The notes: generated by a model not told the origin, from the letters alone. A stretch of 64,000 nucleotides of DNA from Gemmataceae bacterium (GCA_022842245.1 JALHPZ010000001.1:1-64000), one strand, 5' to 3'; counted from the stretch's first letter, positions 4,603 to 64,000 are shown. Program-made: numbers and translations.

Positions 4603-4621
4603 CCGGCCCGGAGATTCCCGG

Positions 4622-5593: not shown

Positions 5594-5631
5594 TCGTGTA
5601 GAATAGCGGTTAGCCGACCGGAGGGGCGAGG

Positions 5632-5835: not shown

Positions 5836-6150
5836 GTGGTGCGAATGACTCGTCGCATCCGCGCTATCGTGTGGTGCTGATTGGTCTCGCCAAGGAAGAA
5901 TTTCTCGCATTGGTCCGCCTTGCGTCCGAGGGGGAAAATCCCAACGATTAATCGACTCGCTCCGAGCCGCCGAAACCATTCTGGAGTCGAATCCGATCGC
6001 GGGTGGTGAACTGCTCTATCGACTGCACAAAATGAAGATGGTCATTTGCCGAATCGTCAGCCCGCCGCTTTACATCGAAAATGGCGTGCATTCCGATCGG
6101 CCCGTCGTCATCATCCGACGTGTGGCTACGCTTTGGCAAGGATTGGACTG
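5832..6150 (+). pseudogene. RelE/ParE-superfamily toxin-like gene interrupted by a -1 frameshift near 5945-5951
   Basis: Frame 0: MSGANDSSHPRYRVVLIGLAKEEFLALVRLASEGENPND*. It continues in another frame as ...LIDSLRAAETILESNPIAGGELLYRLHKMKMVICRIVSPPLYIENGVHSDRPVVIIRRVATLWQGLD*. Together these resemble the ParE layout (N-terminal Y-x-L...A...L helix, then P..G......YR.....V.I.RV). The shift sits at a GGGGAAAATCCCAACGATTAAT low-complexity run. Confidence 0.3.
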
Positions 6151-6187
6151 AACGAAACGGCCGCCCCGTTCGGAGCGGCCGGGAATC

Positions 6188-7287
6188 TTACAGCAAATTG
6201 ACCACGCGGTCGGCCAGGCCCTTCTCGCCCAGCACGACGCTGAGCTTGCCGCCGGCAGCCACGCGTTCCACCACCTCGAGTTCCCGCAGCTTGAGCAGCG
6301 TCGGGTTCTCGGCGAGCAGCTTCGCCGTGTTCGCCTGGTGACGCAGGGCGGCGGCCTCCTCGCGCCGGGTGATGACCGCGGCCTCCGCCGCCGTCCGGGC
6401 TTCGATAACGCGGTTGAGCAGGTCCTTCATCTCGCCGGGCAGGATGATGTCCCGCACGCCGAGCGCGACCAGCTCGAGGCCGACCGTCGCCGCCTTGGCC
6501 CGCGCGATCTCGGCGAGGTCCTTCGCCAGCGCGTCCTTGTCCGCCAGCAGCGCGTCGAGCGTGCGACCCCTACGGCGGCCCGCACGGCGAGCTGCACCTC
6601 GCGGTACAGCGCCTGCTTCGCGTCGTCGGTCACGGTCACGGCCCGAACGGGGTCGGCTACGCGGAACGCACCCACCGCCGTCAGCCGCAGCGTGACGCGG
6701 TCGGCCGTCAGCACCTCCTGGCCCGGCACCTCCAGCGCCTGCTCCCGGCGGTCAACGCGCGCGAGCTTCACCGCGCCGCGGTTCCGCCAGAAGGCGTACC
6801 GGCCCGGCGCCAGCGTCTCGACGTACCGGCCGTCGACGAACAGCACGCCCGCGTGATCCGCCGGCACGTCCTGCACGTCGAGTAGCGCGGCCGCGTTCTT
6901 GCCCGCCAGGATCGCGTCGCGGTCGGCGTGCGCGAAGCGCACGTCCACCAGCTTCACGATCTCCGTGCGGATGCGGCGGAAGCCCGTCCAGAGCGCGTAG
7001 CGACCCGGCGGCAGCACGGCGTCGAACCGGCCGTCGATCCAGACCAGCCCGCGCTCGTCGTCGGCGAGGTCGAGCACAACGGCCTTGCCCTCGAGCGCAC
7101 CGCTCGCGGCGATCAGGTCCAGCTGTTCGTGCGCCAGCCACGGCGCGCGCCGGCTTACGATCTCGATCGTCTCCCGGCCGAGCGGGTTCATCCGCCAGTA
7201 CACGCCCGGGTCGAGCAGGTTCTGGAATGCGCCGTCCCGGAATACGAGGCCGTACTCGAACGGACGAACGGTGATCGTGTGGAACAT
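6188..7287 (-). CDS. SPFH/band-7 (stomatin/prohibitin-like) domain protein with N-terminal triple repeat; frameshift in C4 run at 6567..6570
   Basis: ATG 7287..7285 with RBS GGGAGGA. N-terminal repeats FRDGAFQNLLDPGVYW, WIDGRFDAVLPPGRYALW and FVDGRYVETLAPGRYAFW. SPFH core REQALEVPGQEVLTADRVTLRLTAVGAFRV. The frame breaks after ...REVQLAVRAAVG; the C-terminal part (GRTLDALLADKDALAKDLAEIARAKAATVGLELVALGVRDIILPGEMKDLLNRVIEA...) continues in a -1 frame. Inserting one G into the GGGG run (C-run on plus strand) restores the frame. Confidence 0.7.
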
Positions 7288-7574: not shown

Positions 7575-7648
7575 TCGTTGGGTACCGGAGTCGAACCGGT
7601 AACTTCCAGATTCAGGATCTGGTGCTCTTACCATTTGAGCTAACCCTG
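7575..7648 (-). tRNA. tRNA-Gln(CUG)-like sequence with defective acceptor stem, probably a pseudogene or remnant
   Basis: Minus-strand read CCAGGGT-TA-GCTC-AAATGGTAA-GAGC-A-CCAGA-TCCTGAA-TCTGG-AAGTT-ACCGG-TTCGACT-CCGGT-ACCCAAC-G. The D-arm, anticodon arm (CTG) and T-arm (TTCGACT loop) are good. The acceptor stem pairs only 4 of 7 bp (CCAGGGT vs ACCCAAC) and position 33 is C, not U. Confidence 0.4.
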
Positions 7649-7805
7649 GGTGCATCGAAGCGGCCGGTTTCGAATCCGCAACGGAACGCGGCCCCGCGAC
7701 GGAGAGGCTCCGGCGGACCGCGCCGCACGGCCAAATCCGCGGCGACGCGTGGGAGAGGACAGGCGGGATGAAACGGGGTTCGGGCGAATCAGCACACTTA
7801 GAGAT

Positions 7806-7835
7806 GAAAACGGCGACGGTTCGAACCGTCGCCGT
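7806..7835 (-). terminator. rho-independent terminator downstream of sucD
   Basis: 10-bp stem ACGGCGACGG/CCGTCGCCGT with loop TTCGAA. Followed on the minus strand by TTTTCATCTC. Confidence 0.55.
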
Positions 7836-7853
7836 GGGAAGAGTCGTTGGTCG

Positions 7854-8768
7854 TTACTTTTTCTTCGCCGCGATGGCGCGCTGGACGGCGTCGCCGAGGT
7901 CGGCGGGAGTCGCGGCGACAGCGATGCCGGCCTTTTCGAGGGCCGCCACCTTCTCCTTCGCCGTGCCAGCGCTCGTGCTGGCGATGGCACCGGCGTGGCC
8001 CATGCGCCGGCCGGGCGGCGCGGTCTTCCCGGCGATGAAGGCGGCGACCGGCTTCTTGACGTGCTGCGCCACGTACGCCGCGGCGCGCTCCTCGGCGTCG
8101 CCGCCGATCTCGCCGATCATCAGGATCGCTTCGGTGCCGGGGTCCTCTTCGAACATCTTCAGGAGATCGATCTGGTTCGTGCCGATGATCGGGTCGCCGC
8201 CGATGCCGACGCAGGTGGACTGCGAATAGCCCATGCTGGAGAGCTGGAAGACGGCTTCGTAGGTGAGCGTTCCGGAGCGGCTGATGATGCCGATGCCGGT
8301 CTTGCCCGGTTCGGTGGGCTTGTGGATGTAGCCGGGCATGATGCCGATCTTGCACTGGCCGGGGGTGATGATACCGGGGCAGTTCGGGCCGATGAGCCGG
8401 CAGTCGGGCTTGGTCTGCAGGAAGCGCTTCGCCTTCGCCATGTCGAGGACGGGGATGCCCTCGGTGATGGCGACGATGAGCTTGATCCCGGCGTCGGCGG
8501 CTTCCATGATCGCGTCGGCGGCGAGGCCCGGCGGCACGAAGAGCATGCTCGCGTCGGCCCCCGTCTTCGCGACCGCTTCGGCGACGGTGTTGAAGACCGG
8601 CAATTCCTTGCCGCTCGTCGCCTTCCACATCATGCCGCCCTTCTTGGGCGTCACGCCGCCGACGAAATTGCTGCCGTATTCCAGACTGAGGTTCGTGTGC
8701 TTGGAGCCTTCGGAACCGGTAATCCCCTGCGTGATGACGCGGGTGTTCTTGTCGACGAGGATGCTCAT
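7854..8768 (-). CDS. sucD: succinyl-CoA synthetase (ADP-forming) alpha subunit
   Basis: 304 aa. [25 protein letters not shown]..., CoA-binding and ligase-CoA motifs ([29 protein letters not shown]). Confidence 0.95.
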
Positions 8769-8810
8769 TTCAGGGTCTCGAAAGTAGTCGGGAATGAATC
8801 GGATTGGTCG

Positions 8811-9620
8811 TCAATCCACTTTGATTTCGTCCACCAGCCATTCGTCGGGCCGTTCGCCGGCGACGAGTTTGAGGGCGAACGGTTTCTTGCCGCTGGCGTG
8901 GATCAGTTCGCCGGAGGCGGTGCCGCCTTCGGCTTTGGCGAGTTGATACCCGGTCGCGGTTCCGCGATAACCGTTCAATTTCGTTTTGAGGATACCGACG
9001 TTGAAGAGGCGGGTTTCCGATCCGAGGGCCGGCGCCAACGACTTCTTCAAGGCCACGGTCATCGTGCCGGCGGCGAGGTCGTCCTTGTGGCCGAGCAGGC
9101 CGTGCAGGAACGCCGTCGCTGCGAACGACTGGGGCGTGACGGTGGCAACGGATTCCGCGGGGGATAGCTCCGCGAGCGAGAACCAATCCACGGACCAGCG
9201 GTTTTCGTGCCGTACGAGCCGCAGCAGAAGGTGCAGGGGTTTCTCGGCCTTGATTTCGCCCGTGTAGAGTGCGACGGCGTCGATGCGCGGCGACGCGAGC
9301 GTGTATCCGCCGAGCTTGCCCTGGAACTGCTTGAGCCAGTTCTCGGCCGCGGCGTCGGAATAGCCGCGGGCCCGGTCGGCATCGAAGACCGGTTCAGCGA
9401 TCGCTTTCTTGAATTCCGCCCTCAGGTGCGCCGCAGTGGCTTTGCCGTCGTGCAGGGCCGCGAGGAAGTCCTTGGCGAATAGCGCGGCTTCGGGGCCGGG
9501 GTCGGACTTCGTCGGGACCGCGAGCGGAACGTCCGCGACCGGCGGTACTGGGGCCGCGGTCGGTTTCGAACAACCCACTGCGAGAATCATTCCGAGAAGA
9601 CACACGTCGCGTGCGACCAT
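8811..9620 (-). CDS. hypothetical lipoprotein inserted between sucC and sucD
   Basis: 269 aa. Signal peptide plus lipobox LAVGCS. No recognisable domain. Confidence 0.6.
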   Translation of the reverse strand: MVARDVCLLGMILAVGCSKPTAAPVPPVADVPLAVPTKSDPGPEAALFAKDFLAALHDGKATAAHLRAEFKKAIAEPVFDADRARGYSDAAAENWLKQFQGKLGGYTLASPRIDAVALYTGEIKAEKPLHLLLRLVRHENRWSVDWFSLAELSPAESVATVTPQSFAATAFLHGLLGHKDDLAAGTMTVALKKSLAPALGSETRLFNVGILKTKLNGYRGTATGYQLAKAEGGTASGELIHASGKKPFALKLVAGERPDEWLVDEIKVD

Positions 9621-9659
9621 TCGAACGTCCTTTCCGAATCTTAAGAGCGTTCCGAATGG

Positions 9660-10859
9660 TTACTTCGCCAGTTCCACCACGAGCTTCGCCGCTTCCGTCA
9701 ACCCTTTCGCCACGCGGATGGCTGGAAGTTCGTCCTTGACGCTGTTGAGGATCTCGCGCGCCTTCTCGACTTCGTTCCCTTCGAGGCGAACGACGACGGG
9801 GATCTTGAAGCCGACTTCGCGGCCGGCCTTTACGAGTGCCTCGGCAATCCGGGCGCAACTCGCGATACCGCCGAAGACGTTGACGAAGATCGCCTTCACT
9901 TTGTCATCGCTGAGGATGATGCGGAAGGCTTCGACGGCGTTCTCGGCGGTGACGCCTCCGCCGACGTCGAGGAAGTTTGCGGGGCTGCCGCCGTGGTGGT
10001 TCACGATGTCCATCGTGGCCATCGCGAGGCCAGCACCGTTGACGAGGCAGCCGATGTTGCCGTCGAGCTGGATGTAATTGAGGCTTGCCTTGGCGGCGCG
10101 GATTTCCGTGGGGTTTTCCTCACCCATGTCGCGCAGGGCCTGGACGTCCTTGTGGCGGAAGGTCGCGTTGTCGTCGAAGTCGATCTTCGCGTCCAGCACC
10201 ACCACGTCGCCCTTCTTCGTGACGGCGAGCGGGTTCACCTCGACGATGCTAGCGTCCTTCTCGAAGTAGACCTTCGAGAGCGCCATGAGGATCTTGACGA
10301 CGGAGCCGATCTGTTCGTTCGAGAAGCCGAGGTCGAACGCGAGTTTCTGCGCCTGAAAGGGCAGGAGGCCGGTCTCGGGGGCGACGTGGACCTTGAGAAT
10401 CTTTTCGGGGTGCTTGGCGGCGACCTCCTCGATGTCCATGCCGCCCTCGGCGGAAGCCATGACCATGGGCAGGCCGACCGATCGGTCGAGCACCATGCCG
10501 ACGTAGAACTCCTTGGCCGGTTCGGCGTCGGCCTGCACGATCAGCGTGGAGATCTTCTGGCCCTCCGGGCCGGTCTGTTTGGTCTTCAGCGAGTGCTTCA
10601 GCATCGCCTCGGCAACGGTTTTCGCCTTCTCTTTCGTCGGCACGAACTTCACGCCGCCGAGCTTGTCGGCGTAGCCCATGAGTTGTCCGGCCCCGCGGCC
10701 GCCGGCGTGCACCTGGGCCTTCACGACGGCCCCGCCGCCGTTACTGAGCTGATCGAACGCGGCTCCGACCTCGTCGGCGGTCTTGCAGACGACGTGCTTC
10801 GGCACCGGAGCGCCGTACGCGGCGAGGAGTTCCTTGGCCTGGTATTCGTGGACTTTCAT
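9660..10859 (-). CDS. sucC: succinyl-CoA synthetase (ADP-forming) beta subunit
   Basis: 399 aa. MKVHEYQAKELLAAYGAPVPK..., ATP-grasp N-terminus and ligase-CoA C-terminus. Confidence 0.95.
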   Translation of the reverse strand: MKVHEYQAKELLAAYGAPVPKHVVCKTADEVGAAFDQLSNGGGAVVKAQVHAGGRGAGQLMGYADKLGGVKFVPTKEKAKTVAEAMLKHSLKTKQTGPEGQKISTLIVQADAEPAKEFYVGMVLDRSVGLPMVMASAEGGMDIEEVAAKHPEKILKVHVAPETGLLPFQAQKLAFDLGFSNEQIGSVVKILMALSKVYFEKDASIVEVNPLAVTKKGDVVVLDAKIDFDDNATFRHKDVQALRDMGEENPTEIRAAKASLNYIQLDGNIGCLVNGAGLAMATMDIVNHHGGSPANFLDVGGGVTAENAVEAFRIILSDDKVKAIFVNVFGGIASCARIAEALVKAGREVGFKIPVVVRLEGNEVEKAREILNSVKDELPAIRVAKGLTEAAKLVVELAK

Positions 10860-10933
10860 CGGCGGTTCCCGCGGGTGATGGTGGGGAAGTTATAGGTGGG
10901 CCGTGCACTTGTGGGAGAGGGACCTCAACGCAA

Positions 10934-10963
10934 GAAGCCCGCGGACGATCGTCCGCGGGCTTC
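10934..10963 (-). terminator. perfect 30-nt palindrome (15-bp stem) downstream of the small Cys-rich protein gene
   Basis: GAAGCCCGCGGACGA-TCGTCCGCGGGCTTC. Weak U-tract on the minus strand (TTCTTGCGTT). Could alternatively be a protein-binding palindrome. Confidence 0.4.
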
Positions 10964-10981
10964 TCGTGGTCAACAAGTCAT

Positions 10982-11320
10982 TCAGTTACCGCCCTGGCCG
11001 TACATGAAGTAATCTCGCGGGCTGCGATTGAACGGGTGGGTCGGGAACACGAGTGTACCCGGCAACTGCATCGGCCCGGCCTGCGGGGCACAACCGCGGG
11101 GCCCGCATTTGTCGGTCCCGCAATTGCCGGTGCTACAATCGTCCTTCTTCTTCCAGAACATGATGCGCTTGACGATCGGGTTCCAGCCGTACTGGCCGAC
11201 GGTATTGCCGGGGCCGGCGGACGTGCCGGGCGCGGCGGCGGGCGGCGTGCCGAAGTCGGCCCGGACCTCGCCAGCGGCGAGCGCGGCGCAGGCGGCCACC
11301 GCGAACAGGTACTTCTTCAT
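10982..11320 (-). CDS. small secreted Cys-rich hypothetical protein
   Basis: ~112 aa from internal ATG 11320 (RBS GAGGA). Signal peptide MKKYLFAVAACAALAAGEVRA. Mature part has 4 Cys in DDCSTGNCGTDKCGPRGC. Confidence 0.5.
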   Translation of the reverse strand: MKKYLFAVAACAALAAGEVRADFGTPPAAAPGTSAGPGNTVGQYGWNPIVKRIMFWKKKDDCSTGNCGTDKCGPRGCAPQAGPMQLPGTLVFPTHPFNRSPRDYFMYGQGGN

Positions 11321-11414
11321 CGTGCGTTCCTCGCAAGGGTCGTTCGGGACCGTTGGAACTGATATCGGCCGAATAACCGGAACAACACGAATCAAAATCG
11401 GAAGGCCAGCAAGA

Positions 11415-12104
11415 TCAACGGCGAAACGCCGCCACAAAGGTGAGGACGACGCAGCAAACCGTGGAAATGAAGCAACTCACGGATGCCGTGGTCAGCCACG
11501 GACCGCCCAGGTTTTCTCCAAGCGGAACGCGAGGCAGATTCGCGCGCAGATCCCGTTCCAACTCGTCCCGCAGCCGCAAGTCGGGCAACAGTATCTTGAT
11601 CGTGACGTGGCTGAAGACCGAGAAGGTCGAGGTTTCGACCAGAGGCCGGTGATCGCTCCAGAGGTTGCCGAGGCGTTTGGCGTCGAGGCCGAGTCGTACG
11701 AGTGCGCGTCCAATGACCTCATCCACCGCCGGAGGGTGGACGTTATAGACGGCCAGGGAATTCCGCCGCGATCGCAACGTCAGGTAGGAACTGCCACCCA
11801 CCAGGAGCAAATAGGCGATTGGCGTGATCGCACTGGCGAGCTGCGCGTTCGCCCAGGCGTTCTGCAGGCCGGCGAAGCCTCCGCGCCGGAAGACGTTCGC
11901 GTTCGTCGCCGTCAGGCTGAGGAGAAACCCCGCGCACAGGATGAATCCGCAGATGCCCGAAAGGAGAGCCACGAAATCCCAGACACCGGATACGACGACG
12001 GGGCGTTCCCCGCGATTGACGGCCGCGAGCCAAAAGAGATAGAGCGTCAGCGGCGTGAAGCAGAGGATGCCCCCGGCGGCGAGAAACGGAAGGTCCTGTT
12101 GCAA
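11415..12104 (-). CDS. hypothetical integral membrane protein
   Basis: 229 aa with several hydrophobic helices (FLAAGGILCFTPLTLYLFWLAA, VWDFVALLSGICGFILCAGFLL, IAYLLLVGGSSYL, C-terminal TM). Confidence 0.5.
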   Translation of the reverse strand: MQQDLPFLAAGGILCFTPLTLYLFWLAAVNRGERPVVVSGVWDFVALLSGICGFILCAGFLLSLTATNANVFRRGGFAGLQNAWANAQLASAITPIAYLLLVGGSSYLTLRSRRNSLAVYNVHPPAVDEVIGRALVRLGLDAKRLGNLWSDHRPLVETSTFSVFSHVTIKILLPDLRLRDELERDLRANLPRVPLGENLGGPWLTTASVSCFISTVCCVVLTFVAAFRR

Positions 12105-17792: not shown

Positions 17793-18042
17793 GGCGCAGG
17801 CCTCCGTGAAAGCGCGCCGCGGCCGAAGCCGGGGCGCGTTCCCCCAATGTGTCGCGACGCCGCCGTTTCCCCTGTCGGCGGCGCGCGGTCCCGGAATGAG
17901 GCGTGGGAAATAGCCGGGCGAAAAATGACCCGCAAGGAAATTCCCTTCGAATTGTGAGAAATACACGCGACTGCTCTCGCGTTTCCGGCAAGGGAACGCT
18001 ATCGCGGCGGGCCGGGGAACCGGGGCGATTCGGAGGCGCGAC

Positions 18043-18396
18043 ATGACCGCGAAGGACGGGGCGAACTGGCAAGCGACGCTGGCCGAGGTGGAGCGATCGA
18101 TCGACGACTGCCTCGCGGCACTGGCGAAGTACGAATCGGCCTTCGCGAAGGTGCTGCACGAGCCGGTCCCGCCGGTGCCCGCGCGGCCGCTGCCCGCGCC
18201 GACCGCCGCCTGGGACGACACGCTGGCCGATGCGGCGCGGCGCACGGATGAAGTCGAGCAACTCCTCGACGAGCAGGAGCGAGTCTGGGGCCGCTGGCGG
18301 CAGGCGCTCGGCCAGTGGCAACGCACTCTCGACGCCCTGCCGCCCGGCACCGTCGGCCGGACACCGCTTACCGCCACGGCTACAACGGCTCCATGA
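18043..18396 (+). CDS. hypothetical protein translationally coupled to ispD
   Basis: 117 aa. RBS GGAGG 7 nt upstream. Stop overlaps the ispD ATG (ATGA). Confidence 0.45.
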   Translation: MTAKDGANWQATLAEVERSIDDCLAALAKYESAFAKVLHEPVPPVPARPLPAPTAAWDDTLADAARRTDEVEQLLDEQERVWGRWRQALGQWQRTLDALPPGTVGRTPLTATATTAP

Positions 18397-19133
18397 GCGA
18401 CTTCGCCGTCATCCTCCCCGCCGCCGGTTCGTCCACCCGGTTCGGCGGACTCGAAAAGAAACCCTTCACGAGCCTCGACGGCCGACCGATCTGGCTCCGC
18501 TCCTGCGAACTCTTCTGGACGCGCCCCGACGTCGCGCGCGTCTACATCGTGATTGCCCCCGAAGACGGCGAGGTCTTCCGCGCCCGCTTCGGGCACCTGC
18601 TGCTGTTCGCGAACGCCGAGATCGTCGAGGGCGGGGCGGAGCGCTTCGAATCGGTGGCGAACGCGCTGGCGCGGGTGCCGGCGGAGGTGCCGTTCGTGGC
18701 GGTGCACGACGCAGTGCGGCCGCTGGTGGCGCCCCGGCAGATCGACGCGGTGTTCGCGAAGGCGCGCGAGACGGGTGCGGCGATGCTCGGCGTGCCGCTG
18801 GCGGACACCCTCAAACGGGTCGAGGGGGATGTCGTGCGCGGCACGGTGCCCCGCGCCGGGCTGTGGCAGGCGCAGACGCCGCAGGTCTTCCGGCGGGACT
18901 GGCTCGTCGAGGCCTACGCGAATCGGGGGCAGCTGTGCACCGCCATCACCGACGATGCGCAGTTGCTGGAGGCGGGCGGCCGCGCCGTCGCGATGGTGCC
19001 GGGGACGGCGGCGAACTTCAAGATCACAACGCAGGACGACCTCGCGCTCGCCGAGGCGGTGGTGCGATCGCGCGCGAAGCCGGTGGAGGAGAAGCCGCCC
19101 GCCCGCGGCTTCGGCGACGAGGCCGAGTGGTGA
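18393..19133 (+). CDS. ispD: 2-C-methyl-D-erythritol 4-phosphate cytidylyltransferase
   Basis: 246 aa. MSDFAVILPAAGSSTRFGG..KPF, ...VAVHDAVRPLV, ...TDDAQLLE motifs. Confidence 0.85.
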   Translation: MSDFAVILPAAGSSTRFGGLEKKPFTSLDGRPIWLRSCELFWTRPDVARVYIVIAPEDGEVFRARFGHLLLFANAEIVEGGAERFESVANALARVPAEVPFVAVHDAVRPLVAPRQIDAVFAKARETGAAMLGVPLADTLKRVEGDVVRGTVPRAGLWQAQTPQVFRRDWLVEAYANRGQLCTAITDDAQLLEAGGRAVAMVPGTAANFKITTQDDLALAEAVVRSRAKPVEEKPPARGFGDEAEW

Positions 19134-47641: not shown

Positions 47642-52003
<4,362 letters not shown>

Positions 52004-52060
52004 ATCGAAACTCCCGATTGAGAGTGAATGTTCAAGGAAGGAAGAAGTTGCGGACGGAAG

Positions 52061-52082
52061 CCCTCCCATGATCATGGGAGGG
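52061..52082 (-). promoter_or_regulatory. perfect 22-nt palindrome in the rpoB-rpoC intergenic region (attenuator or processing hairpin)
   Basis: CCCTCCCATGATCATGGGAGGG equals its own reverse complement. Lies 10 nt after the rpoB stop. Confidence 0.5.
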
Positions 52083-52091
52083 CTTGTTATC

Positions 52092-55850
<3,759 letters not shown>

Positions 55851-56273
55851 CGGCAAACTCCTGGGTCCAACGAATCGACGGTCCGGCAAGTGCCCCCCGT
55901 CGGCGGACGAACGGGCCTTGCATCGGTGGTCGGAAGACGTTATTTCTGAGGGATCGGTCGGCGGACGCCGGGCACCAACGCAACAATCCCGCGCCGGGAC
56001 ACTCCCCATTCAAGGGAGGTTCGCGGAACGGGGCAGTATTGGGCCGGGGTGTGTATCGGGAAGTTCATCGAGCGCAGGAGCGAGTGGGTCGCGTGCATTT
56101 TCACCACTGCTTTTGCGTTGCGGTTTGCGAAGGCGGGCAGGCCCGACGGCGCAATCCGGGTAAAAAAAGCAACTTCTCCGCCAGATTAAGATGATACGCC
56201 TGTTCGGCGAGTCCGTCGATAGTCAACGGCACATTTTTTGCGAACCATTCGCTTAACCCCCGGAAAAGCAAGT

Positions 56274-56326: not shown

Positions 56327-56501
56327 CGCGGATCGAGCCAGGCGCGTGCCGCGCGAATCTGGGCAAGGCCGCGCGGTCCCGATGAATGCGCGGATTCCAC
56401 GGACGAAACCGATTTTTCCATTTCGTTGAACTTTGTCGCTTGTTCCACCCGATTTAGCGAGTACCAACCGGCCGCTGCGCCGCGCGAGGGGAGAACGTCA
56501 C

Positions 56502-59156
56502 ATGAAACGGAATCGCTGGAAGTCGGCAACGGGGTGCCTCGCCACGGTCCTGATCGGCGCGAACGCGGCGACGGCCCAATCGCCGAAGGATCCGCCGCAG
56601 GCCCCGAAATCGCTCGGCGCACCGGTCGTTCCGATTCCGGTCGAATTGCCCAAGGTGCCCGGCGGCGAACTGAAACTCGTGAAACAGCCGCCGAACGAAG
56701 AACTCCCGGCCGCGACGCAGCCGGTGACGCCGACCGCGCCGACTCCCACAGCTCCGGCTCCCGCGCCGGCCCCCGCCGCACCGGCGGCCGGCGGCTCCTC
56801 CAGCACCGTGAATGTGTCCGGTTCGGACCCGTCCGGCGCCGCCGCTCCCACCGCGGGCGGCGGACAACCCACCCAAGCCCTCAACGCCTCCGACCTCGGC
56901 GGGCTGCTCGGCAAGTCCGATCAGGCCACCGGCGTCGAGGTGCAACGCCGCAACGCCATCAGCAGCGACCCGCGCATCCGCGGCCTGCGCAACGGCCAGT
57001 ACCTCGCCCTCGGCGACGGCGTTCCGTACTTCCCCGGCCGTCTCGACCTCGATACGCCGGTCTCCAAGTTCTACCCCGCCATGGTCCGTGACGTGCAAGT
57101 GTTCCGCGGGCCCTTCACCACGCTCCTCGGGCCAGGCTTCGGCTTCATCAATATCGGTACCGTCAACGCGCCCCGCTCCAAGAACGGCGGCACCGAATAC
57201 CACGGCATCTCGTCCCTCGGCTACCAGACCAACGGCGAGCAGTACAACGCCCTCCAGGTCGTGACCGCCGCCGGTTCGAACTGGGGCTTCCGCGGCAGCT
57301 ACAACATCCTGCAGGGGAACGACTACGCCGACGGCGGCGGCAACAAGATCCCCGCCAGCTACCTCTCCAACAACTTCAACGTCGCCCTCGGCTACGACCT
57401 GTCGGAAGACGTGACTGTCGACTTCAAGGGCCTGCGCACCTTCCAGAGCAACCTGGAGTTCCCCGGCCTGTACTTCGACGTCGACGCCTCCGATACCGAA
57501 GCCTACAACACGCGCATCACGGCCCGGAATTTCGGCCCCTTCGACGTCTTCACGACGGACCTCTGGTACAACGTCTCGACGACCAGCGGCAGCACGCGGG
57601 GTGGAGCGAAGAAGGCGTTCGTCAACCAACTCCTTCGCTTCGCGTTCGAGGAGCCGTTCCTGAGTCGCCGGCCCGACGGCACGCCGGACCTCCTACAGGG
57701 GCGGCGCGGTTTCGGCTTCAATGACCAGTCCACTACCCGCTTCGCGGAGCGCTCGATTGGCTATCGCTTCAACGGCCAGTGGGGGAACAATACGGATGAA
57801 CTGACCCTGTTCATGGGCACCGACCTCAACGTCTTCGGCCAGCACCTGACCGAAAACATCATGTTCACGCAATTGGCCGGTCCGCCGATCCAGACCTCGA
57901 ATCCGCCAGGGTCCACCCTGCCGTCGAACGTGATTACGCAGACCCAACAGATTCCGAAGTCCAACAGCTACAACCCTGGTTTGTTCCTCGAAGGGATGTT
58001 GCCGCTCAACGATCGCCTCAAAATCAAGGGCGGCGGTCGGATCGACTACGTTCGAACGAGCAGCAACAATCGCGTCATTACCGGCAACGTCGATCTCTTC
58101 GGCGACCCGCAGAACCCAGGGCTGGTCGATGCGCAGGGCCGCTTCATGCTCGATCCGAGTGTGTACTCGGTGGATCCTTCACCGATCGCCGCGAATCCTT
58201 TCACCCGAGAACTGGACCGCAATTTCACGCTCTATGCCGGCTTCGCCACCGCCGAGTACAAGATTTCCCAAGAGACGACGCTCTTCGCCGGCTACGGCTA
58301 TGCGGAACGCGCGCCGAACCTGACGGAACTCTACACCGCCGGCCCGTTCCTCGGCGTGCTGCAGACCGGCACCAGCCGCGTCATCGGCGATCCGAACCTC
58401 TCCAAGGAACGGATGCACCACATCGATATCGGCCTGCGGTACGACACCGACTACCTGAAGTTCGGCATCAGCGGCTTCTACGCCATGATCCAGGACTACA
58501 TCACCTACGACGCGAACCGCGTCTCGCAACTCGGCCTCTCGCAGGTGACCTTCACGAACACCGACCTCGCCACCCTGGCCGGTACGGAACTGTTCATGCA
58601 GGCGAACGTCACGAAATGGTTCTCGCCGTTTGCCACTCTCAGCTACGTGCAGGGGATCGACCAAACGCACGTCGACAACCGTCGCGGCACGGTCTTCAAC
58701 CGTGTCGATGCGAACGGCACGCCGTTCACCAGCCGACTCGACAGCAGCCGGCGGCGCGATCCGGCGACCGGTGCCGCCGCCACCGATACCGAACCGCTGC
58801 CGAACATCCCGCCCATGGAAACCCGGCTCGGCTTCCGCATCCACGGCAGCGACCCGGTCCCGAAGTGGCAGATCGAAGTGGTCTCGCGGATTGTCAGCGG
58901 CCAGAATGCCATCGCCCGCAGCCTCGGCGAAATCGCGACGCCCGGCTTCAGCACGATCGACCTGCGGGGCTACTACCAGCTGAACGAGAACCTGCTGCTG
59001 ACGGGCGGCGTGGAAAACCTCGGTGATCGGCTGTACCGCGAACACCTTGACCCGATCGCCGCCAACCAGCTGCGGAGCCTGACGGGCGAGGGCAGCATCC
59101 CGGTGCTCTTCCGTCCGGGGACCAACTTCTTCTTCAACGTGCAGTACAAGTACTGA
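56502..59156 (+). CDS. TonB-dependent-receptor-like outer-membrane beta-barrel protein (plug + barrel)
   Basis: ~884 aa from MKRNRWKSATGCLATVLIGANAATA, a signal peptide. Pro/Ala-rich linker. Plug-like TGVEVQRRNAISSDPRIRGLRNGQY..VDGVPY. Terminal aromatic-rich beta strand FFNVQYKY. Confidence 0.65.
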   Translation: MKRNRWKSATGCLATVLIGANAATAQSPKDPPQAPKSLGAPVVPIPVELPKVPGGELKLVKQPPNEELPAATQPVTPTAPTPTAPAPAPAPAAPAAGGSSSTVNVSGSDPSGAAAPTAGGGQPTQALNASDLGGLLGKSDQATGVEVQRRNAISSDPRIRGLRNGQYLALGDGVPYFPGRLDLDTPVSKFYPAMVRDVQVFRGPFTTLLGPGFGFINIGTVNAPRSKNGGTEYHGISSLGYQTNGEQYNALQVVTAAGSNWGFRGSYNILQGNDYADGGGNKIPASYLSNNFNVALGYDLSEDVTVDFKGLRTFQSNLEFPGLYFDVDASDTEAYNTRITARNFGPFDVFTTDLWYNVSTTSGSTRGGAKKAFVNQLLRFAFEEPFLSRRPDGTPDLLQGRRGFGFNDQSTTRFAERSIGYRFNGQWGNNTDELTLFMGTDLNVFGQHLTENIMFTQLAGPPIQTSNPPGSTLPSNVITQTQQIPKSNSYNPGLFLEGMLPLNDRLKIKGGGRIDYVRTSSNNRVITGNVDLFGDPQNPGLVDAQGRFMLDPSVYSVDPSPIAANPFTRELDRNFTLYAGFATAEYKISQETTLFAGYGYAERAPNLTELYTAGPFLGVLQTGTSRVIGDPNLSKERMHHIDIGLRYDTDYLKFGISGFYAMIQDYITYDANRVSQLGLSQVTFTNTDLATLAGTELFMQANVTKWFSPFATLSYVQGIDQTHVDNRRGTVFNRVDANGTPFTSRLDSSRRRDPATGAAATDTEPLPNIPPMETRLGFRIHGSDPVPKWQIEVVSRIVSGQNAIARSLGEIATPGFSTIDLRGYYQLNENLLLTGGVENLGDRLYREHLDPIAANQLRSLTGEGSIPVLFRPGTNFFFNVQYKY

Positions 59157-59204
59157 TCGGGAACGCGATCGAGTCGAGGCCGGCGGAGTCCGCTCCGTCG
59201 GCCT

Positions 59205-60863
59205 TTATGTTTTCAGGTCCTTGAAGAACTGCAGGTAGACGATGCCGCCGATGATCGCCACGAGGAGCGCCGCGGCGACGTAGAGCAGGCCGGCCCACTG
59301 GGAATACGATCGGTCTTCGATGATCGATTCGGCGGACCAGCTAACCGAGCTTTGGGATTCGGTGAGTCGTTGGAAGACGCCGGCGACGAACGCCTGGTGC
59401 TTTTCGTCGCGCCCGGTGGCGGCGAGGTAGCAACCGGCGAGGAGCGGCAGGGCCGCGAGGCCATCGCCGACGACCGCCGAAGTTTCCACGGGCATCCCGC
59501 GGGCCATGACGCGCCCCAGGCGGGGGCCTCGGAGGAACATCTCGTGGAGGAACGCGAAGAGTTTCTGGTTGTAGGGCGGAACGAACGGACCGCTGCGCAC
59601 GTCCGGCGGCCAGTCGAGCCGCAGGTATTTGATCACCCACGACGCCAATACGTTCATGCGGATCCAGTCGGCGGCCTGTTCCATGACCTCGGGAATTTCC
59701 TCGGGCGGCCGATCCGGCACGACCGGCAAGCGCTGGCCGATCCGCGCCTTGAGCATCTCTTTGGGGAAACCCCGGCGGAACTCGTCGAAGCCGGGTGCCT
59801 GTTCGAGGTCGCAGACCATGAGGAAGTGGGCGTAGCGCTGGCGGAACACGGCCCGCGCCGTCGCGAGATCGGTCGCCAGCACGCCGAGCGCGTTCCGGCA
59901 GATCTCGTCGGTTTCGAGCGCGGCCCACGGCAGCAGCACCATGACGCCATTCAACGGGCACCAGGGGCGGCGGTCGCGGGCAATCAGCTTGCAGAGGAAC
60001 GCAAGGCGGCGCGGCCCGAGGGCAAGCAGTTCGTTCGACAGATTAATGTGCCGCGTGCCGCCGCCCGCCTTCGTCGTCTGGATCATCTCGCCCAGTTCGC
60101 GCAGGCGGGCATCCTCGTCGGGCGTGAGCGGGCGATCGCTTTGGATCTGCAATAGCCGATAGAACTCGTCCTGGACTTTTTCGTCGACCCCCTGGAGCGC
60201 CTGGCCGGGGGTGATGGTCGCGCCAGCGCCGGCGGCGCCGGCGCCCACGTCGAAGCCGCCGATCTCCGGATTCGCCAGCGCGTCGGCGAAGCTGCCCCAC
60301 GTGGACGCCCCGGAGCAGCAGACGAAGATCGCGTCCGGCCCGGCGAAGATCCGCAAGGGGGAATCGACGGCGAGCGGTGCCCGGACTTCGATCCGCTGCC
60401 CGGAGGCGAGGAACAACGCGTCGTCGCCGGCGTTCGGTCGGCCGATGACGAGATAGAGCGGCGCGTCCCCGAGCTTGTAACCGCTCTGGGCGAGCTTTCG
60501 GATGGCGTCGTCCCAGGCGGATTCGATGTCCGGGAATTCGGCGGCGTCGCCGCGGTTGAAGAGCTTCCACCAGAAGTAGCCGAGCCACGTGATGACGTAG
60601 ATCAGCAGGAAGATCAGCGGGAGATAGATCTCCTTGATCGCGTTGGTCGCCCGCGACTTCAACAGGTTCTGAACGAACGGTTGTTTGTTGAGATACCAAA
60701 GACCATAGAAGATGACGGCGAGGATGATGGCGTGGACGAGGAGGCGGAACCACTTCGGCCAGGTGCGGAAGTCGGCGGCTTCCGCGAAGATCGGAAGAAC
60801 GATGCCGACGAGTCCGCGAATCCAGGCCACGAACGTGGCGCCCATCATGACGATCGATTGCAT
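59205..60863 (-). CDS. TssM/IcmF N-terminal-domain-like inner-membrane protein, truncated (no periplasmic domain), degenerate P-loop
   Basis: 552 aa. 2-3 N-terminal TM helices, a ~400-aa cytoplasmic domain with LYLVIGRPNAGDDALFLAS at the position of the TssM Walker A (GPxGxGKS/T), one C-terminal TM (WAGLLYVAAALLVAIIGGIVYLQFF), then the protein ends. Confidence 0.55.
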   Translation of the reverse strand: MQSIVMMGATFVAWIRGLVGIVLPIFAEAADFRTWPKWFRLLVHAIILAVIFYGLWYLNKQPFVQNLLKSRATNAIKEIYLPLIFLLIYVITWLGYFWWKLFNRGDAAEFPDIESAWDDAIRKLAQSGYKLGDAPLYLVIGRPNAGDDALFLASGQRIEVRAPLAVDSPLRIFAGPDAIFVCCSGASTWGSFADALANPEIGGFDVGAGAAGAGATITPGQALQGVDEKVQDEFYRLLQIQSDRPLTPDEDARLRELGEMIQTTKAGGGTRHINLSNELLALGPRRLAFLCKLIARDRRPWCPLNGVMVLLPWAALETDEICRNALGVLATDLATARAVFRQRYAHFLMVCDLEQAPGFDEFRRGFPKEMLKARIGQRLPVVPDRPPEEIPEVMEQAADWIRMNVLASWVIKYLRLDWPPDVRSGPFVPPYNQKLFAFLHEMFLRGPRLGRVMARGMPVETSAVVGDGLAALPLLAGCYLAATGRDEKHQAFVAGVFQRLTESQSSVSWSAESIIEDRSYSQWAGLLYVAAALLVAIIGGIVYLQFFKDLKT

Positions 60864-60884
60864 GGCAGTCCGCGGTAAGGGGGC

Positions 60885-61562
60885 TTAGTCGTTCTTCGAG
60901 AGATACTGCGCGAGGACGGCGGCGCCGGCGAACAACCCGGCGGCGACGACGACCATCAGCGCGCGGCCGGCGGTGCGGAAGCGATCGCGTCCGCGCAGCG
61001 CCGGCACGTGCGTCTTCATGCCGAGGTCGGCCGGCATCCGGAATTCCTGCTGGTGCGACGTGATGACGCGGCGGCGGACCCGCTCGACCCATTCCGGCGG
61101 ATTCAACAAGCCCGGGTCGCCGCGGAAGCCGAGCATCACGCACCAGAGATAGGCCTCGACCGCCTCGGCACCGGGGCGTTTTTCGGCGAGGTCGGCCTGG
61201 AGCCAGAAGCGCCAGGCCCGTTCCTGCCCGCCGCCATACAGTTCCGCTTCGAGCGACTTTTCCTTCCACGCGCGGGACCACGATCCGTTGGCGGCCGCGA
61301 CGTCGTTGATGAAGATTTCATCGAGCCAGCAGGCGAGCGCGTAGCGCACGCCGAGGAAATCGGTCGCCGTCGGCTGCACCGGCCGCGGGACGTTGTCACC
61401 GTAGTCGGGGTGGCCGCGCACGGAGCCGTCGGCCCAGAGCATCGACTTCAGTTTCGAGTTCTCCGCGTCCAGCAGCACGCTCTCGCCGCTCAGGATCCGA
61501 TCCTTGAGGCTCATGCCGTAGGCCAGGACCTGGAGAACGTGACTGGTCAGTTCGTGCGCCAT
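60885..61562 (-). CDS. tssL: DotU/TssL-family protein (type VI/IVB secretion membrane-complex subunit homolog)
   Basis: 225 aa. Cytoplasmic DotU-like helical domain (LWCVMLGFRGD-like segment YLWCVMLGFRGDPG) and a single C-terminal TM (ALMVVVAAGLFAGAAVLAQYL). Confidence 0.65.
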   Translation of the reverse strand: MAHELTSHVLQVLAYGMSLKDRILSGESVLLDAENSKLKSMLWADGSVRGHPDYGDNVPRPVQPTATDFLGVRYALACWLDEIFINDVAAANGSWSRAWKEKSLEAELYGGGQERAWRFWLQADLAEKRPGAEAVEAYLWCVMLGFRGDPGLLNPPEWVERVRRRVITSHQQEFRMPADLGMKTHVPALRGRDRFRTAGRALMVVVAAGLFAGAAVLAQYLSKND

Positions 61563-61581
61563 CGAGCGAGGCTCCCGCCGA

Positions 61582-63003
61582 TCAGGCCTTCGGAGGAATG
61601 ATGTAGAGGGTGAAGCGAAGGATCGGCTGCCGGTTCGGCTGACCCTTGATCATGACATCGCGCTTGCCTTCGAGGTCGCCGGCCAGCAACCGTTCGTTCA
61701 GGCGGATCGCCACGCGGCGGGTCCGCTGCACGAACGGCCATTCCTCCTTGGTCGCCTCGATCGAGAAGTACGTGTCTTTCTTCGTGATGGGAAGGACGCG
61801 GGGCGGCTGCGGTTCGTGGCGGAAGATCATGCCGCGGTGGCCGCGGGCGTAGACCTCCTCCACGCGGTCCGACGACGCGATCTTCATGTTCATCTGGCCG
61901 CTGGTCAGCAGGGCGATGACCTCGGCGCTCGCCAGGTTCGATTCGACGCCGACGTACATCTGCCAGCCGGTCGCGAGCCACGGCTCGTCCATTTCGACCT
62001 GCATCTGCAGGCCCTTGCCGCTGAACGGTCGCTGTTGAAACTTGCGGTCGGCCCCGATCATGTTCAGGAGCTGGTCGAGGATGCGCTTGAGTTCGAAGAA
62101 CCCGTTCCCGAGATCGTCGTGGTCGTAGTCGACGAGTTCCGGGCAGACGCGATCGGATCCGAAGATCGCCAACTGGCCGATCAGCCGGCAGAGTTCGGTG
62201 AAGGCGAAGAGCGGGTGGTGGCCGTTGGTGCGGGCGAGGATGCGCGTGACGGACGCCGCTTCGTTGAGCAGGCGGACCTGTTCGAACATCAGCCGCGCTT
62301 CCGGGTCGGTGTCCTGGAAGGTGATTTCGCGGTCGCGGACGGTCGTCCCGAGATCGCGGACCAGCGAGCCGATCTTGTAGTAGATCGGCTGGAGGATGTC
62401 GTTGCGGAGTTCCGGCCAGGCTTCGCAGACCAGGATCGGCGGAATGTAGGTCCGGTTGAGGATCGGTGCGGTATCGCCCTGCGTCGATCGCGTGAGCGTC
62501 GCGATGGGGAGCGTTTCGTAGCCGGCGGAGTCCTGACCGGTGATGAGGAGCGAGAGGTTGAGACGCCGGAACTGGAGGGGGCGTTCGTTCTTGCCGTCGT
62601 TCTCGTCGGGAACGCGGGCATCGGATTCGATGCGGTAGCGTTTGTCTTCGTCGTTGGTGCCGCCGACGTTGACGCGGCCGACTTCGAGGGTCGGCACGGC
62701 GAGCATCACTTCGATCTGGCTCTGCTGCTCGAAGGCGGGGCGCAGGTCGAGTTCGCGGAGGTTGCAGTCCTCCGGGACGCGGACGATGGTGCCGTCGCGC
62801 ATGCGGGCCTGGAGCGAGCCGACGACGAAGCGGAAGTTCTTGAGGGCGTCGCGGTCGATCTCGATCCGACGGATGCCCCAGTTGTAGGGGGCGTCCCAGC
62901 GGCTGGAGAGACGGGTGTAGTCGGCCCAATACCGGTCGGACGCCTGGAAATGGTGGGGGCGAAGGAACATCCCCTCGTGCCAGTAGACCGGTAGGGTTCG
63001 CAT
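61582..63003 (-). CDS. tssK: TssK-family protein (type VI secretion baseplate subunit homolog)
   Basis: ~473 aa from MRTLPVYWHEGMFLRPHHFQASDRYW, which matches the conserved TssK N-terminus (VxWxEGMxLxPQHFQQxDRY). The ORF opens at 63102. Confidence 0.75.
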   Translation of the reverse strand: MRTLPVYWHEGMFLRPHHFQASDRYWADYTRLSSRWDAPYNWGIRRIEIDRDALKNFRFVVGSLQARMRDGTIVRVPEDCNLRELDLRPAFEQQSQIEVMLAVPTLEVGRVNVGGTNDEDKRYRIESDARVPDENDGKNERPLQFRRLNLSLLITGQDSAGYETLPIATLTRSTQGDTAPILNRTYIPPILVCEAWPELRNDILQPIYYKIGSLVRDLGTTVRDREITFQDTDPEARLMFEQVRLLNEAASVTRILARTNGHHPLFAFTELCRLIGQLAIFGSDRVCPELVDYDHDDLGNGFFELKRILDQLLNMIGADRKFQQRPFSGKGLQMQVEMDEPWLATGWQMYVGVESNLASAEVIALLTSGQMNMKIASSDRVEEVYARGHRGMIFRHEPQPPRVLPITKKDTYFSIEATKEEWPFVQRTRRVAIRLNERLLAGDLEGKRDVMIKGQPNRQPILRFTLYIIPPKA

Positions 63004-63189
63004 GTTGCTTTCCGAGACGCCACGGGCCGGGACCGGCCATCGCCCCCGTAGGTATACCCGATGGAACCACGCCAGTGAAGGGGCGGATTGTCGGGATCGC
63101 AATCCGGACCGGCGGGCGGATGCCGGTTCGTATCATGGTAGCAATCGCGTCGGGAGGCCCCGCGCGAGGGAGGCGCCGAGCGAGTCGAC

Positions 63190-64000
63190 CATGAATAGCG
63201 ACGACTGGTGGAAGGGCGGGCGCGCCGACGCGATGCTGGACATCGTGGCGGAGCGGTTCACGCCTCGGCGGTGGCGGTTGTTGGGCACGGCGTGCCTGCG
63301 GCGCCGTTGGGACTTGCTGCCCGAGGGCGAACTGCGGGCCGCCGTGGAGGAGATCGAGGCCAACGCCGAGGCCCCGAGCGCGTCTTTTGCCGCGAACCGC
63401 CGAAAATCCATCGCCCGCGCACTGCCCGACCTGGTGGCGCAGGCCACCGCCGACACCGAATCTCTCGTGCGCGGCGCGGCGATGGACGCCGTGGCGGAAC
63501 CGAACCCCAACGCGCCGGCGCTGCCGTTATTCCTGGCGGCGGGGCGGTACGCGGCCTCGGCCGAGGCGCAGGCGGGTCGACCGGTCGAACTCGCCGCGGC
63601 CGCGGTCCTCGCGCTCTTGGACGAACCGGGACGCGACGCGACACTCCGCGCCGCGCAGGGGATCGAAGATGCGCTGGCCGCCCGCGTCGCCTGCGCCCGG
63701 GCGGTATCCACCGCCCTCCGATTGAAGCAGCAGGGCGACGAACTCGCCGACTCCGCCGCGAGCGCGAAGAACAAGCGGATCGAACTCGCGAAGGCCGAAG
63801 AGATCGTCCGTCGCACGCAGGAGCAGGACGACAACCGCCTGCTCGACGCCGACGGGGCGGACCGCGCCGCCCGCAAGGCGATCGCGCGATTCCTCCACGA
63901 ACTCGTCGGCGATCCCTTCAGCGATTACCGCTTTGAAGCGGCCTGGCGAACCGAGACCGTCACAAACCTCGCGCGGGCGATCGAGGCCGAAAGAGCCTTT
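63190..64000 (+). CDS. hypothetical Ala/Arg-rich helical protein, 3' partial, divergent from the tssK-like operon
   Basis: ATG 63190 (MNSDDWWKGGRADAMLDIVAERFTPRRWRLLGTACLRRRWDLL...). Open to the window end. Not in the supplied ORF list (no stop). Confidence 0.45.

Follow-up and report, generated by a model that had tools for sequence, protein, structure and literature searches.

A tightly packed tssK-tssL-tssM trio near one end of the 64,000 nt stretch of Gemmataceae DNA analysed here (the window) probably encodes the anchor and baseplate-docking module of a split, Planctomycetota-type T6SS whose tail and baseplate genes lie at another locus. This reading is preferred because relatives have separate tail loci, because Pirellulales carry the same trio within full T6SS clusters, and because the trio is not decayed. 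The TssM encoded here is a short form with a degenerate P-loop and no periplasmic domain; the trio is most likely a variant of T6SS whose short TssM is not described in the open-access literature searched, where no paper or preprint was found that deals with a TssM lacking the periplasmic domain or with this planctomycete trio.

All three genes lie on the minus strand with gaps of only 19 and 21 nt between them (Table 1), an arrangement reported in the first-pass annotation of this DNA, and the flanking genes named there, a convergent TonB-dependent-receptor-like gene and a divergent hypothetical gene, are both present on the sides where it placed them. The divergent gene has no Pfam match and is conserved in close relatives only. 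A GC-rich hairpin in the 48-nt gap between the receptor-like gene and tssM is possibly a bidirectional terminator, but it is weak evidence for one, since two terminator-like sites were seen in the region and 2.8 are expected from shuffling. The absence of further T6SS genes, claimed originally for about 3 kb on each side, extends to the whole window: with T6SS proteins of Pirellulales and Limnoglobus as queries, tblastn found no TssA, B, C, E, F or G and no Hcp, PAAR or TagJ in the 64 kb. Two other ideas about the locus found no support. Homologues of the convergent TonB-dependent receptor occur close to the trio in 11 loci, and the receptor was considered as an outer-membrane partner; it diverges fast (70 of 888 amino acids changed relative to L016, the nearest relative) and resembles an ordinary metal/haem receptor. 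A role in anti-phage defence was rejected on the outcome of a PADLOC search, in which TssK and TssL matched none of the defence models and TssM gave a single non-specific 2TM match (E=0.0077).

Table 1. The tssK-tssL-tssM trio and flanking features, in window coordinates
Feature	Coordinates	Strand	Remarks
tssK	61582..63003	-	473 aa from likely ATG 63003; mechanical ORF to TTG 63102; connector of baseplate and membrane; TIGR03353, PF05936
tssL/dotU	60885..61562	-	225 aa; DotU domain (cytoplasmic), single C-terminal TM helix; PF09850
short tssM	59205..60863	-	552 aa; hydrophobic N-terminus, GTPase-fold domain, IcmF-related_N, C-terminal TM
GC-rich hairpin	59176..59205		13 bp stem; terminator-like scan
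TonB-dependent-receptor-like gene	56433-59156		convergent to trio
divergent hypothetical gene	start 63191	+	340 aa as read in relative L016

The identification of the first gene as tssK, made initially from its N-terminus, is well founded. Its product scores 271.6 bits against TIGR03353 (cutoff 100; residues 5-439) and matches Pfam T6SS_VasE (PF05936) at 1.3e-75, and phmmer aligns it to solved TssK structures (5y0e residues 7-430, 5m30 residues 6-411, E=3.4e-29). Residues 6-437 align with 5y0e, the N-terminal VYWHEGMFLRPHHFQ motif included; this is nearly the entire chain, and the tssK protein is therefore complete. By these sequence alignments it appears to keep the full-length architecture of solved TssK, with shoulder, neck and head domains. 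The second gene product, proposed to be of DotU/TssL type with a single C-terminal TM helix, scores 49.1 bits against PF09850 (gathering score 27) and has one hydropathy peak at residues 201-219 of 225. Its TIGR03349 score of 36.1 bits falls under the cutoff of 89.95, which marks the protein as a divergent member of the DotU family; its match to the DotU structure 6y4r is weak, and it carries no peptidoglycan-binding extension. Fusions of TssL with the short TssM exist in other genomes (P0069 and P0070), and this supports direct contact between the two proteins.

The third protein bears out the earlier description of TssM-like N-terminal topology with a degenerate Walker A. It has hydrophobic segments at about residues 4-22, 41-59, 79-97 and 526-544 of 552, a cytoplasmic P-loop NTPase fold lies between the membrane segments, and the sequence GRPNAGDD (residues 141-148) occupies the beta1-loop-alpha1 position of the G-domain fold in an AF2 model. 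The chain stops 8 residues past the last TM segment and so lacks a periplasmic domain, as had been noticed; a Pfam scan found neither IcmF-related PF06761 nor IcmF_C PF06744. The earlier point holds that a TssM of this kind is unable to build the canonical trans-envelope channel. The match to PF14331 is borderline (25.1 bits, gathering score 25.0), orthologues score 44-48 bits, and the domain is precomputed for 70 of 70 homologues. TIGR03348 does not match the window TssM; judged by E-value (E<=0.01, best 3.1e-10), it gives partial matches to 13 of 26 family members. The short TssM belongs to a large family, common across Planctomycetota, whose members share a GTPase-like fold in which the P-loop is dead; it has 911 clusters at E<=1e-30. 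No aligned canonical Walker A motif (GxxxxGK[ST]) was found in 80 family members, and a GKS/EKA-like remnant occurs in only a few Pirellulales sequences.

Where the tail genes might be is indicated by relatives. In the complete genome of Limnoglobus roseus, whose trio is 66-76% identical to that of the window and has the same neighbours, the trio lies at 8.08 Mb and a tail locus at 7.37-7.39 Mb, about 700 kb away; it contains PAAR, TssA, TssC, four Hcp, TssE, TssF and TssG genes and lacks K, L and M. (The L. roseus TssC sequence used as query came from the supplement of PMC9230969.) Likewise, in the MAG CAYVRB the trio, 91-96% identical to the window's, is on contig 323, and a tail locus with the same gene set, again without TssK, TssL and TssM, is on contig 10. 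Thus, of the two alternatives offered originally, the one that saw the trio as the membrane component of a system whose other genes lie elsewhere is supported in the closest examinable genomes, whose tail loci are missing exactly these three genes. The description of the trio as an orphan holds locally, for the 64 kb, and fails genome-wide in L. roseus and CAYVRB; the trio looks orphaned because these bacteria keep T6SS genes in separate places. The window's own genome would also carry a tail locus, to judge from these relatives with 66-96% identical trio proteins. In both tail loci TssC directly follows TssA, and no TssB, VgrG or ClpV was found within 10 kb (20 kb covered); a 182-aa ORF before the L. 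roseus TssA was considered as TssB and discarded, having no similarity and no Pfam match. A Pirellulales TssC searched against a large protein database gave at least 120 matches, those listed all being Pirellulales-like; the near TssC matches include a 90% cluster of two members (MAG CAYVRB and Logan assemblies of sequencing runs) and P0195 from another MAG.

The distribution of the three-gene arrangement in Planctomycetota, which the first-pass annotation had proposed to survey, was followed across 81 loci spanning Gemmataceae, Isosphaeraceae, Pirellulales, Planctomycetaceae and Kuenenia. The K-L-M order and strand are kept in the great majority of them; the genes are rearranged in Kuenenia, and some loci have an L-M pair without K. 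Tail genes occur within 10 kb of the trio in about 16 of the 81, and a further 6 have a TssA gene. In Pirellulales the K-L-short-M trio lies inside full T6SS clusters, and tail genes adjoin the trio in L055, L065, L067, L070, L071, L075 and L081; in L075 and L071 a Pfam scan identified TssA (ImpA_N), TssB (VipA), two TssC (VipB), TagJ (ImpE), TssE (gp25) and TssF, while tail genes in the other trio-adjoining loci were assigned by tblastn. L074 and L082 have a partial tail set. A TssA gene adjoins the trio in sister Gemmataceae and Fimbriiglobus loci; it is divergent and beside tssK in L007, L008, L010 and L011, and near tssK in Singulisphaera.

The other original alternative was that the trio is a repurposed or undescribed TssKLM-like module of the inner membrane. 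Independently of T6SS, such a module would anchor or regulate some other apparatus (for example a different contractile or surface one) where it stands alone. Many Isosphaeraceae and Gemmataceae loci indeed show no tail gene in the surrounding 10 kb, some L-M pairs lack an accompanying K, and no TssB was found beside TssC in the nearest tail loci. The trio also has conserved neighbours that are not T6SS genes: giant single-TM proteins of roughly 1400-1700 aa adjoin it in 28 of the 81 loci (the window has none), and Ser/Thr kinase-FGE fusions do so in 15. However, both kinds of neighbour are also found in loci with full T6SS clusters, and the kinases argue for a T6SS role, since T6SS is known to be regulated by PpkA-type kinases and by TagR, an FGE-like protein. 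Moreover, in the nearest complete genome K, L and M are precisely the genes missing from the tail locus, and in a neighbor-joining tree of TssK the tail-linked and unlinked loci are interleaved, with the window clade sister to a TssA-linked clade and no separate unlinked lineage. The TssK also appears to be full length and to keep the N-terminal region by which TssFG is bound in systems that have been characterised. With the trio inside complete Pirellulales clusters and TssA adjoining it elsewhere, an independent function seems unlikely.

A T6SS membrane complex in decay, left as a remnant or duplicate and with its tssM cut by a premature stop, might be suspected from a TssM of about half the canonical length that has lost its Walker A, and from the tssK of Fimbriiglobus ruber, which is broken into two ORFs. 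Against this, members of the short TssM family are of uniform length (the best 150 of the 911 clusters fall at roughly 450-630 aa), a conserved TM helix closes the proteins, and the same short form operates in complete clusters. The trio is, in addition, under very strong purifying selection. Compared with its 95%-identical relative L016 it shows 111 nucleotide differences and a single amino acid change across 1250 codons; tssK and tssL have no amino acid differences (39 and 18 synonymous nucleotide differences, respectively), and rpoB in the same comparison has 5 changes in 1249 aa. Against L004, dN/dS of the trio is 0.04-0.09. No full-length TssM was seen in any tail locus examined, and so the picture by which the first-pass annotation would have been overturned, a complete T6SS with full-length TssM of which the trio is a decayed duplicate, is not what was found. 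Decay is effectively refuted and can be given hardly any weight. It is just as improbable that the genes encode accessory proteins of a Dot/Icm-like type IVB system as in Legionella: the DotU and IcmF families do occur in both T4BSS and T6SS (PMC2660368), but T6SS-specific TssK is in the same operon, relatives have TssA and T6SS tail genes linked to the trio, clustering found no Dot/Icm gene in the 81 loci, and Legionella IcmF retains its periplasmic domain.

If the trio is the anchor and docking module of a split T6SS, TssL and the short TssM would, by analogy with their counterparts in E. coli and Agrobacterium, form an inner-membrane complex, and TssK trimers would dock the TssEFG/VgrG baseplate on the cytoplasmic faces of these two proteins. 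The set encoded elsewhere would supply TssA, TssC, Hcp, TssE, TssF, TssG and PAAR, and, from the known roles of its components, a TssBC/Hcp tail would polymerise from the docked baseplate and then fire. For some systems at least, models make nucleotide binding by TssM a step of assembly; the GTPase-like domain here would have lost its nucleotide chemistry and may serve as a scaffold. Passage through the envelope would have to do without TssJ and the periplasmic domain of TssM, the spike either punching through with no pre-formed conduit or using one supplied by non-homologous proteins, for which the giant single-TM proteins beside the trio in relatives are candidates. These giants do not appear to be a detached TssM periplasmic domain: they have no IcmF Pfam domains and no profile match to a TssM in the PDB, and only a C-terminal CarboxypepD_reg-like beta-sandwich was recognised in them.

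A broader generalisation, that Planctomycetota T6SSs as a whole rely on an anchor confined to the inner membrane, made of TssL and a pseudo-GTPase TssM and having neither a periplasmic conduit nor TssJ, and cross the envelope channel-free or by way of the giant proteins, is offered tentatively, as somewhat more doubtful than not. The planctomycete periplasm can be much enlarged, so a canonical conduit would fit poorly. Should the generalisation be true, it would define a new architectural subtype of T6SS, with at least 900 protein clusters across the phylum. The trio with its short, dead-P-loop TssM is conserved between close relatives as tightly as RNA polymerase, and the retention of TssK and TssL with a conserved, cut-off TssM in full clusters across Planctomycetota therefore makes a natural test of which membrane-complex parts are dispensable. 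It also has a bearing on the way planctomycetes, with their unusual envelope, accommodate a contractile machine. T6SS finders based on gene clusters will miss or mis-score such systems, because the genes are scattered and the TssM fails standard full-length models.

Among known systems, the canonical T6SS-i (E. coli EAEC Sci-1, with TssJ-TssL-TssM plus TssK; PDB 5m30, 6hs7-type) is similar in its full-length, clearly homologous TssK, in a TssL with a cytoplasmic DotU domain and one TM, in the N-terminal TMs, cytoplasmic NTPase-fold domain, IcmF-related_N and following TM of TssM, and in the typical K-L-M gene order. In models of the proteobacterial type, the TssM periplasmic domain and TssJ are the exit channel for tube and spike. 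That domain, of roughly 700 aa (IcmF-related and IcmF_C; conduit and TssJ binding), is absent from the short TssM, which has also lost Walker A; no TssJ was recognised among the conserved neighbour clusters (neighbour clustering only), and in the window lineage the trio is unlinked from tail genes. The Legionella Dot/Icm T4BSS likewise has DotU and IcmF family proteins as inner-membrane partners, but it has no TssK and its IcmF is full length, and the relatives of the window trio are linked to T6SS genes. Bacteroidota T6SS-iii and Amoebophilus T6SS-iv perform contractile secretion without a TssJLM trans-envelope channel, so such a channel is not mandatory. Neither has any TssL or TssM homologue, whereas the planctomycete trio has TssL as well as TssM's cytoplasmic/inner-membrane half; T6SS-iii does keep a TssK, so that retention of TssK alone is no difference from it. 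The Acinetobacter T6SS reportedly has a TssM of full length, supplemented by periplasmic accessory proteins. Its membrane complex is a non-canonical T6SS-i one that departs from TssJLM (PMC10564176); the planctomycete complex departs from TssJLM as well, but here it is TssM's own periplasmic part that is missing. Finally, the interrupted tssM of Citrobacter rodentium is reported to give length variants (PMC4256274), including a TssM without the C-terminal periplasmic part, its frameshift being rescued to give a functionally required full-length protein; in contrast, the planctomycete short TssM is the sole form and is conserved phylum-wide.

ORF calls bear out the three tightly spaced minus-strand genes described in the first-pass annotation, with gaps of 19 and 21 nt between them (their coordinates and those of other features are collected in the table). 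Judged by profile matches, the first gene product is a clear member of the TssK family (TIGR03353, 271.6 bits against a cutoff of 100; Pfam T6SS_VasE, 1.3e-75), and its alignment with the solved TssK structures 5y0e and 5m30 spans its full length. The likely tssK start is the ATG at 63003 (MRTLPVYWHEGMFLRPHHFQ...), which gives a 473 aa protein that matches its homologues in length; the TTG at 63102 merely marks the mechanical start of the ORF. The second product, which had likewise been read correctly as a DotU/TssL protein with one C-terminal transmembrane (TM) segment (residues 201–219), is a divergent family member. In the profile searches, TIGR03353, PF09850 (49 bits; gathering score 27) and, at the borderline, IcmF-related_N (25.1 against the Pfam threshold of 25.0, for the third protein) gave matches, whereas the NCBIfam DotU model scored below its cutoff.

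The third protein (552 aa, no NCBIfam match in the profile search) is, on sequence grounds, a homologue of TssM's N-terminal half, and its modelled fold is a G-domain with a dead P-loop (GRPNAGDD). It has hydrophobic segments at about residues 4–22, 41–59, 79–97 and 526–544, and since just eight residues follow the last of these, the canonical TssM periplasmic domain is absent, as had been proposed. This "short TssM" fails three defining TssM features: the equivalog model, the Walker A motif and the periplasmic domain. No further T6SS gene was detectable across the whole 64-kb window, which extends the earlier observation that there were none nearby. The first-pass description of the trio is borne out in all its details.

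The short TssM is not peculiar to this genome but belongs to a large and uniform family. A word-indexed search found 70 homologues, the full-length ones about 540–580 aa long and all with PF14331; those of Limnoglobus roseus and Fimbriiglobus ruber are labeled "IcmF/TssM N-terminal domain-containing" by NCBI, and two of the 70 are DotU-IcmF_N fusions (P0069 and P0070). The TssM equivalog model TIGR03348 matched half of the aligned members weakly. An HMM scan of 1.84 billion representatives yielded 911 clusters at E ≤ 1e-30, and the best 150 of these are all 381–629 aa long. Short tssM genes are duplicated in tandem in some genomes. One genome per species was scanned for loci, and 80 of 127 confirmed loci were kept; these span Gemmataceae, Isosphaeraceae (Singulisphaera, Aquisphaera and Tundrisphaera), Pirellulales (Bremerella and Pirellula), Planctomycetaceae and Kuenenia.

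The arrangement is conserved in the great majority of 81 loci, with tssK and tssL directly upstream of short tssM, co-oriented with it and in unchanged order. Clustering of all flanking ORFs, together with tblastn probes, separated four types of context. The first, mostly in Pirellulales and Planctomycetaceae, is a full T6SS cluster in which a divergent giant protein gene is followed by those for TssK, TssL, short TssM, a sigma-70-like protein, TssA, TssB, TssC, a second TssC, TagJ/ImpE, TssE, TssF and TssG (identities confirmed by Pfam); no full-length TssM is present within these clusters. In the second (28 loci, some also with tail genes), the trio adjoins at least one single-TM protein of about 1400–1700 aa, with or without a full cluster and often as a tandem pair. 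In the third, a divergent TssA gene accompanies the trio (Gemmataceae STL-PLA22 and three Fimbriiglobus MAGs); the Singulisphaera trio has a TssA gene at a distance of 3.5 kb. In the fourth, that of the window's clade, the trio is alone. A neighbor-joining tree built on TssK intermingles loci with and without linked tail genes; it places the window's clade as the sister group of the TssA-linked one, and "orphan" trios form no separate lineage in it. The sigma-70-family gene between short tssM and tssA in the Pirellulales clusters (11 loci) is preceded in nine loci by a conserved 137-aa ORF with no Pfam match, and the two may be a dedicated regulator pair. The F. ruber tssK is broken up into two ORFs that overlap in different frames, which is a frameshift or sequencing error.

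A T6SS sheath protein of L. roseus PX52 has been listed in a study of sheath proteins, with its sequence in a supplement (PMC9230969), and its use as a query recovered the L. roseus protein and the surrounding tail locus. By tblastn this locus contains no TssK, TssL or TssM. The L. roseus trio, which has the same convergent TonB-receptor neighbor as the window, is about 700 kb away. MAG CAYVRB, whose trio (L004) is 91–96% identical to that of the window, has this tail locus as well, on a contig (L085) other than that of the trio. Tail locus and trio are complementary: precisely the three core genes of the latter are missing from the former. TssC follows TssA directly in both tail loci, and no TssB, VgrG or ClpV was found within the 20 kb fetched at each; a 182-aa ORF upstream of TssA was considered for TssB and is not TssB. 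The usual TssA-TssB-TssC order is found in L088, from a more distant relative. The system of the L. roseus/CAYVRB clade is either encoded in more than two loci or incomplete.

It is chiefly this complementarity that supports an interpretation of the window trio as the unlinked membrane and docking module of a T6SS encoded elsewhere, an alternative already raised in the first-pass annotation; we consider it probable, the host's own tail locus being extrapolated from relatives. Among the TssC database hits that could be traced, none came from the window's own genome. The term "orphan" holds locally, where the trio does stand alone, but not at the genome scale, given the gene scattering and the distant tail locus in L. 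roseus; planctomycete genomes are known to show little operon clustering. The other suggestion, that the trio has been repurposed, would also suit its local isolation, but with complementary tail loci in L. roseus and CAYVRB it is unlikely.

The public sequence nearest to the window is a contig of MAG Gemmataceae bacterium ACE_PLA22 (L016; about 95% DNA identity). Between the two, tssK has 39 nucleotide differences and tssL 18, neither with any amino acid change, and tssM has 54 with one; by comparison, 5 of 1249 residues differ in rpoB, 11 of 270 in the divergent neighbor and 70 of 888 in the convergent receptor. With a dN/dS of 0.04–0.09 against L004, the trio is under very strong purifying selection, which rules out a decaying remnant. 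The receptor changes quickly where the trio does not, so a functional link seems unlikely. In 11 loci, most of them from Gemmataceae, such a receptor-like gene occurs close to the trio (the window, L004, L005, L006, L007, L010, L014, L019, L020, L021 and L026), in varying position and orientation. The divergent neighbor, Ala- and Arg-rich with no Pfam match, has a conserved counterpart upstream of tssK in the closest relatives alone, with 62% identity in L. roseus. The 85 residues at its C-terminus reappear at unrelated sites in two other loci (L002 and L034), which suggests a repeated domain family.

Features of the window and of related loci (L-numbers denote loci from other genomes)
Feature	Locus	Coordinates	Strand	Remarks
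tssK, tssL/dotU, short tssM	window	59205-63102	-	three ORFs
TonB-dependent-receptor-like gene	window	56433-59156	+	convergent with trio
Divergent neighbor	window	63191-64000	+	
Divergent neighbor, whole gene	L016	6651-7673	-	340 aa
rpoB	window	52092-56009	-	just past receptor gene
rpoC	window	47642-52075	-	just past receptor gene
tRNA gene	window	2314-2397	+	the two are the sole Rfam matches in the window
tRNA gene	window	7580-7646	-	
Tail locus	L. roseus chromosome	7.371-7.393 Mb		PAAR, TssA, TssC, four Hcp, TssE, TssF, TssG; FGE-sulfatase-domain protein, response regulator, hybrid kinase, ParA-like protein
Trio	L. roseus chromosome	8.08-8.10 Mb		
TssC directly after TssA	L084 (L. roseus)	8864-11476		48-nt gap
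TssC directly after TssA	L085 (CAYVRB)	3968-6584		48-nt gap
Stand-alone FGE-sulfatase gene	L084 (L. roseus)	17917-18789	+	after tssG
Giant single-TM protein	L075	2350-7224	-	
Giant single-TM proteins	L033	11785-16668; 16746-21539	-	
Giant single-TM protein	L021	11657-16573	-	
Giant single-TM protein	L067	2190-6605	-	
Kinase-FGE-sulfatase fusion	L048	4550-6898	-	
Kinase-FGE-sulfatase fusion	L060	11666-15523	+	
Ser/Thr kinase with TPR repeats	L056	5252-9325	+	
sigma-70-family gene	L075	11655-12314	+	
sigma-70-family gene	L063	11929-12648	+	
137-aa ORF	L076	7951-8364		
Split tssK	L002 (F. ruber)	7630-8100; 8028-9077		
Short tssM duplicates	L031	3095-4648; 5630-6961		
Short tssM duplicates	L037	10001-11350; 11761-13143		

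By analogy with the characterized systems of E. coli and Agrobacterium, TssL and short TssM would form an inner-membrane complex, and the TssL-short TssM fusions found elsewhere fit a direct contact between the two. TssK would join the cytoplasmic side of both to the TssEFG/VgrG baseplate, with TssBC/Hcp polymerizing from the latter, and the TssM G-domain would be a scaffold with no enzymatic role. The giant proteins, none of which is encoded in the window, start with a short stretch rich in Arg, followed by a single TM segment and then about 1500 residues, and are candidates for a periplasmic partner of short TssM. In sequence they showed no relationship to the periplasmic domain of TssM, and their sole Pfam-type match is a C-terminal CarboxypepD_reg-like beta-sandwich. 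Beyond the TM segment, a conserved VSAHG...KLLxLD block looks caspase/CHAT-like by eye.

T6SS genes have been known in Rhodopirellula since 2009 (PMC2660368), and a later survey of three planctomycetes found many in R. baltica only (PMC5394234). We found no description of a TssM devoid of periplasmic domain and active P-loop, or of the split organization, in the open-access literature. The lasting interest lies in what appears to be a T6SS variant found throughout the phylum, with a TssM devoid of a periplasmic conduit. Ser/Thr protein kinases adjoin the trio in 15 loci, some of them fused to FGE-sulfatase domains. In other bacteria, such as Pseudomonas, the PpkA/TagR phosphorylation pathway regulates T6SS through TssL or Fha. 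The kinase and FGE neighbors of the trio and of the tail locus resemble this PpkA/TagR regulation of the Pseudomonas T6SS.
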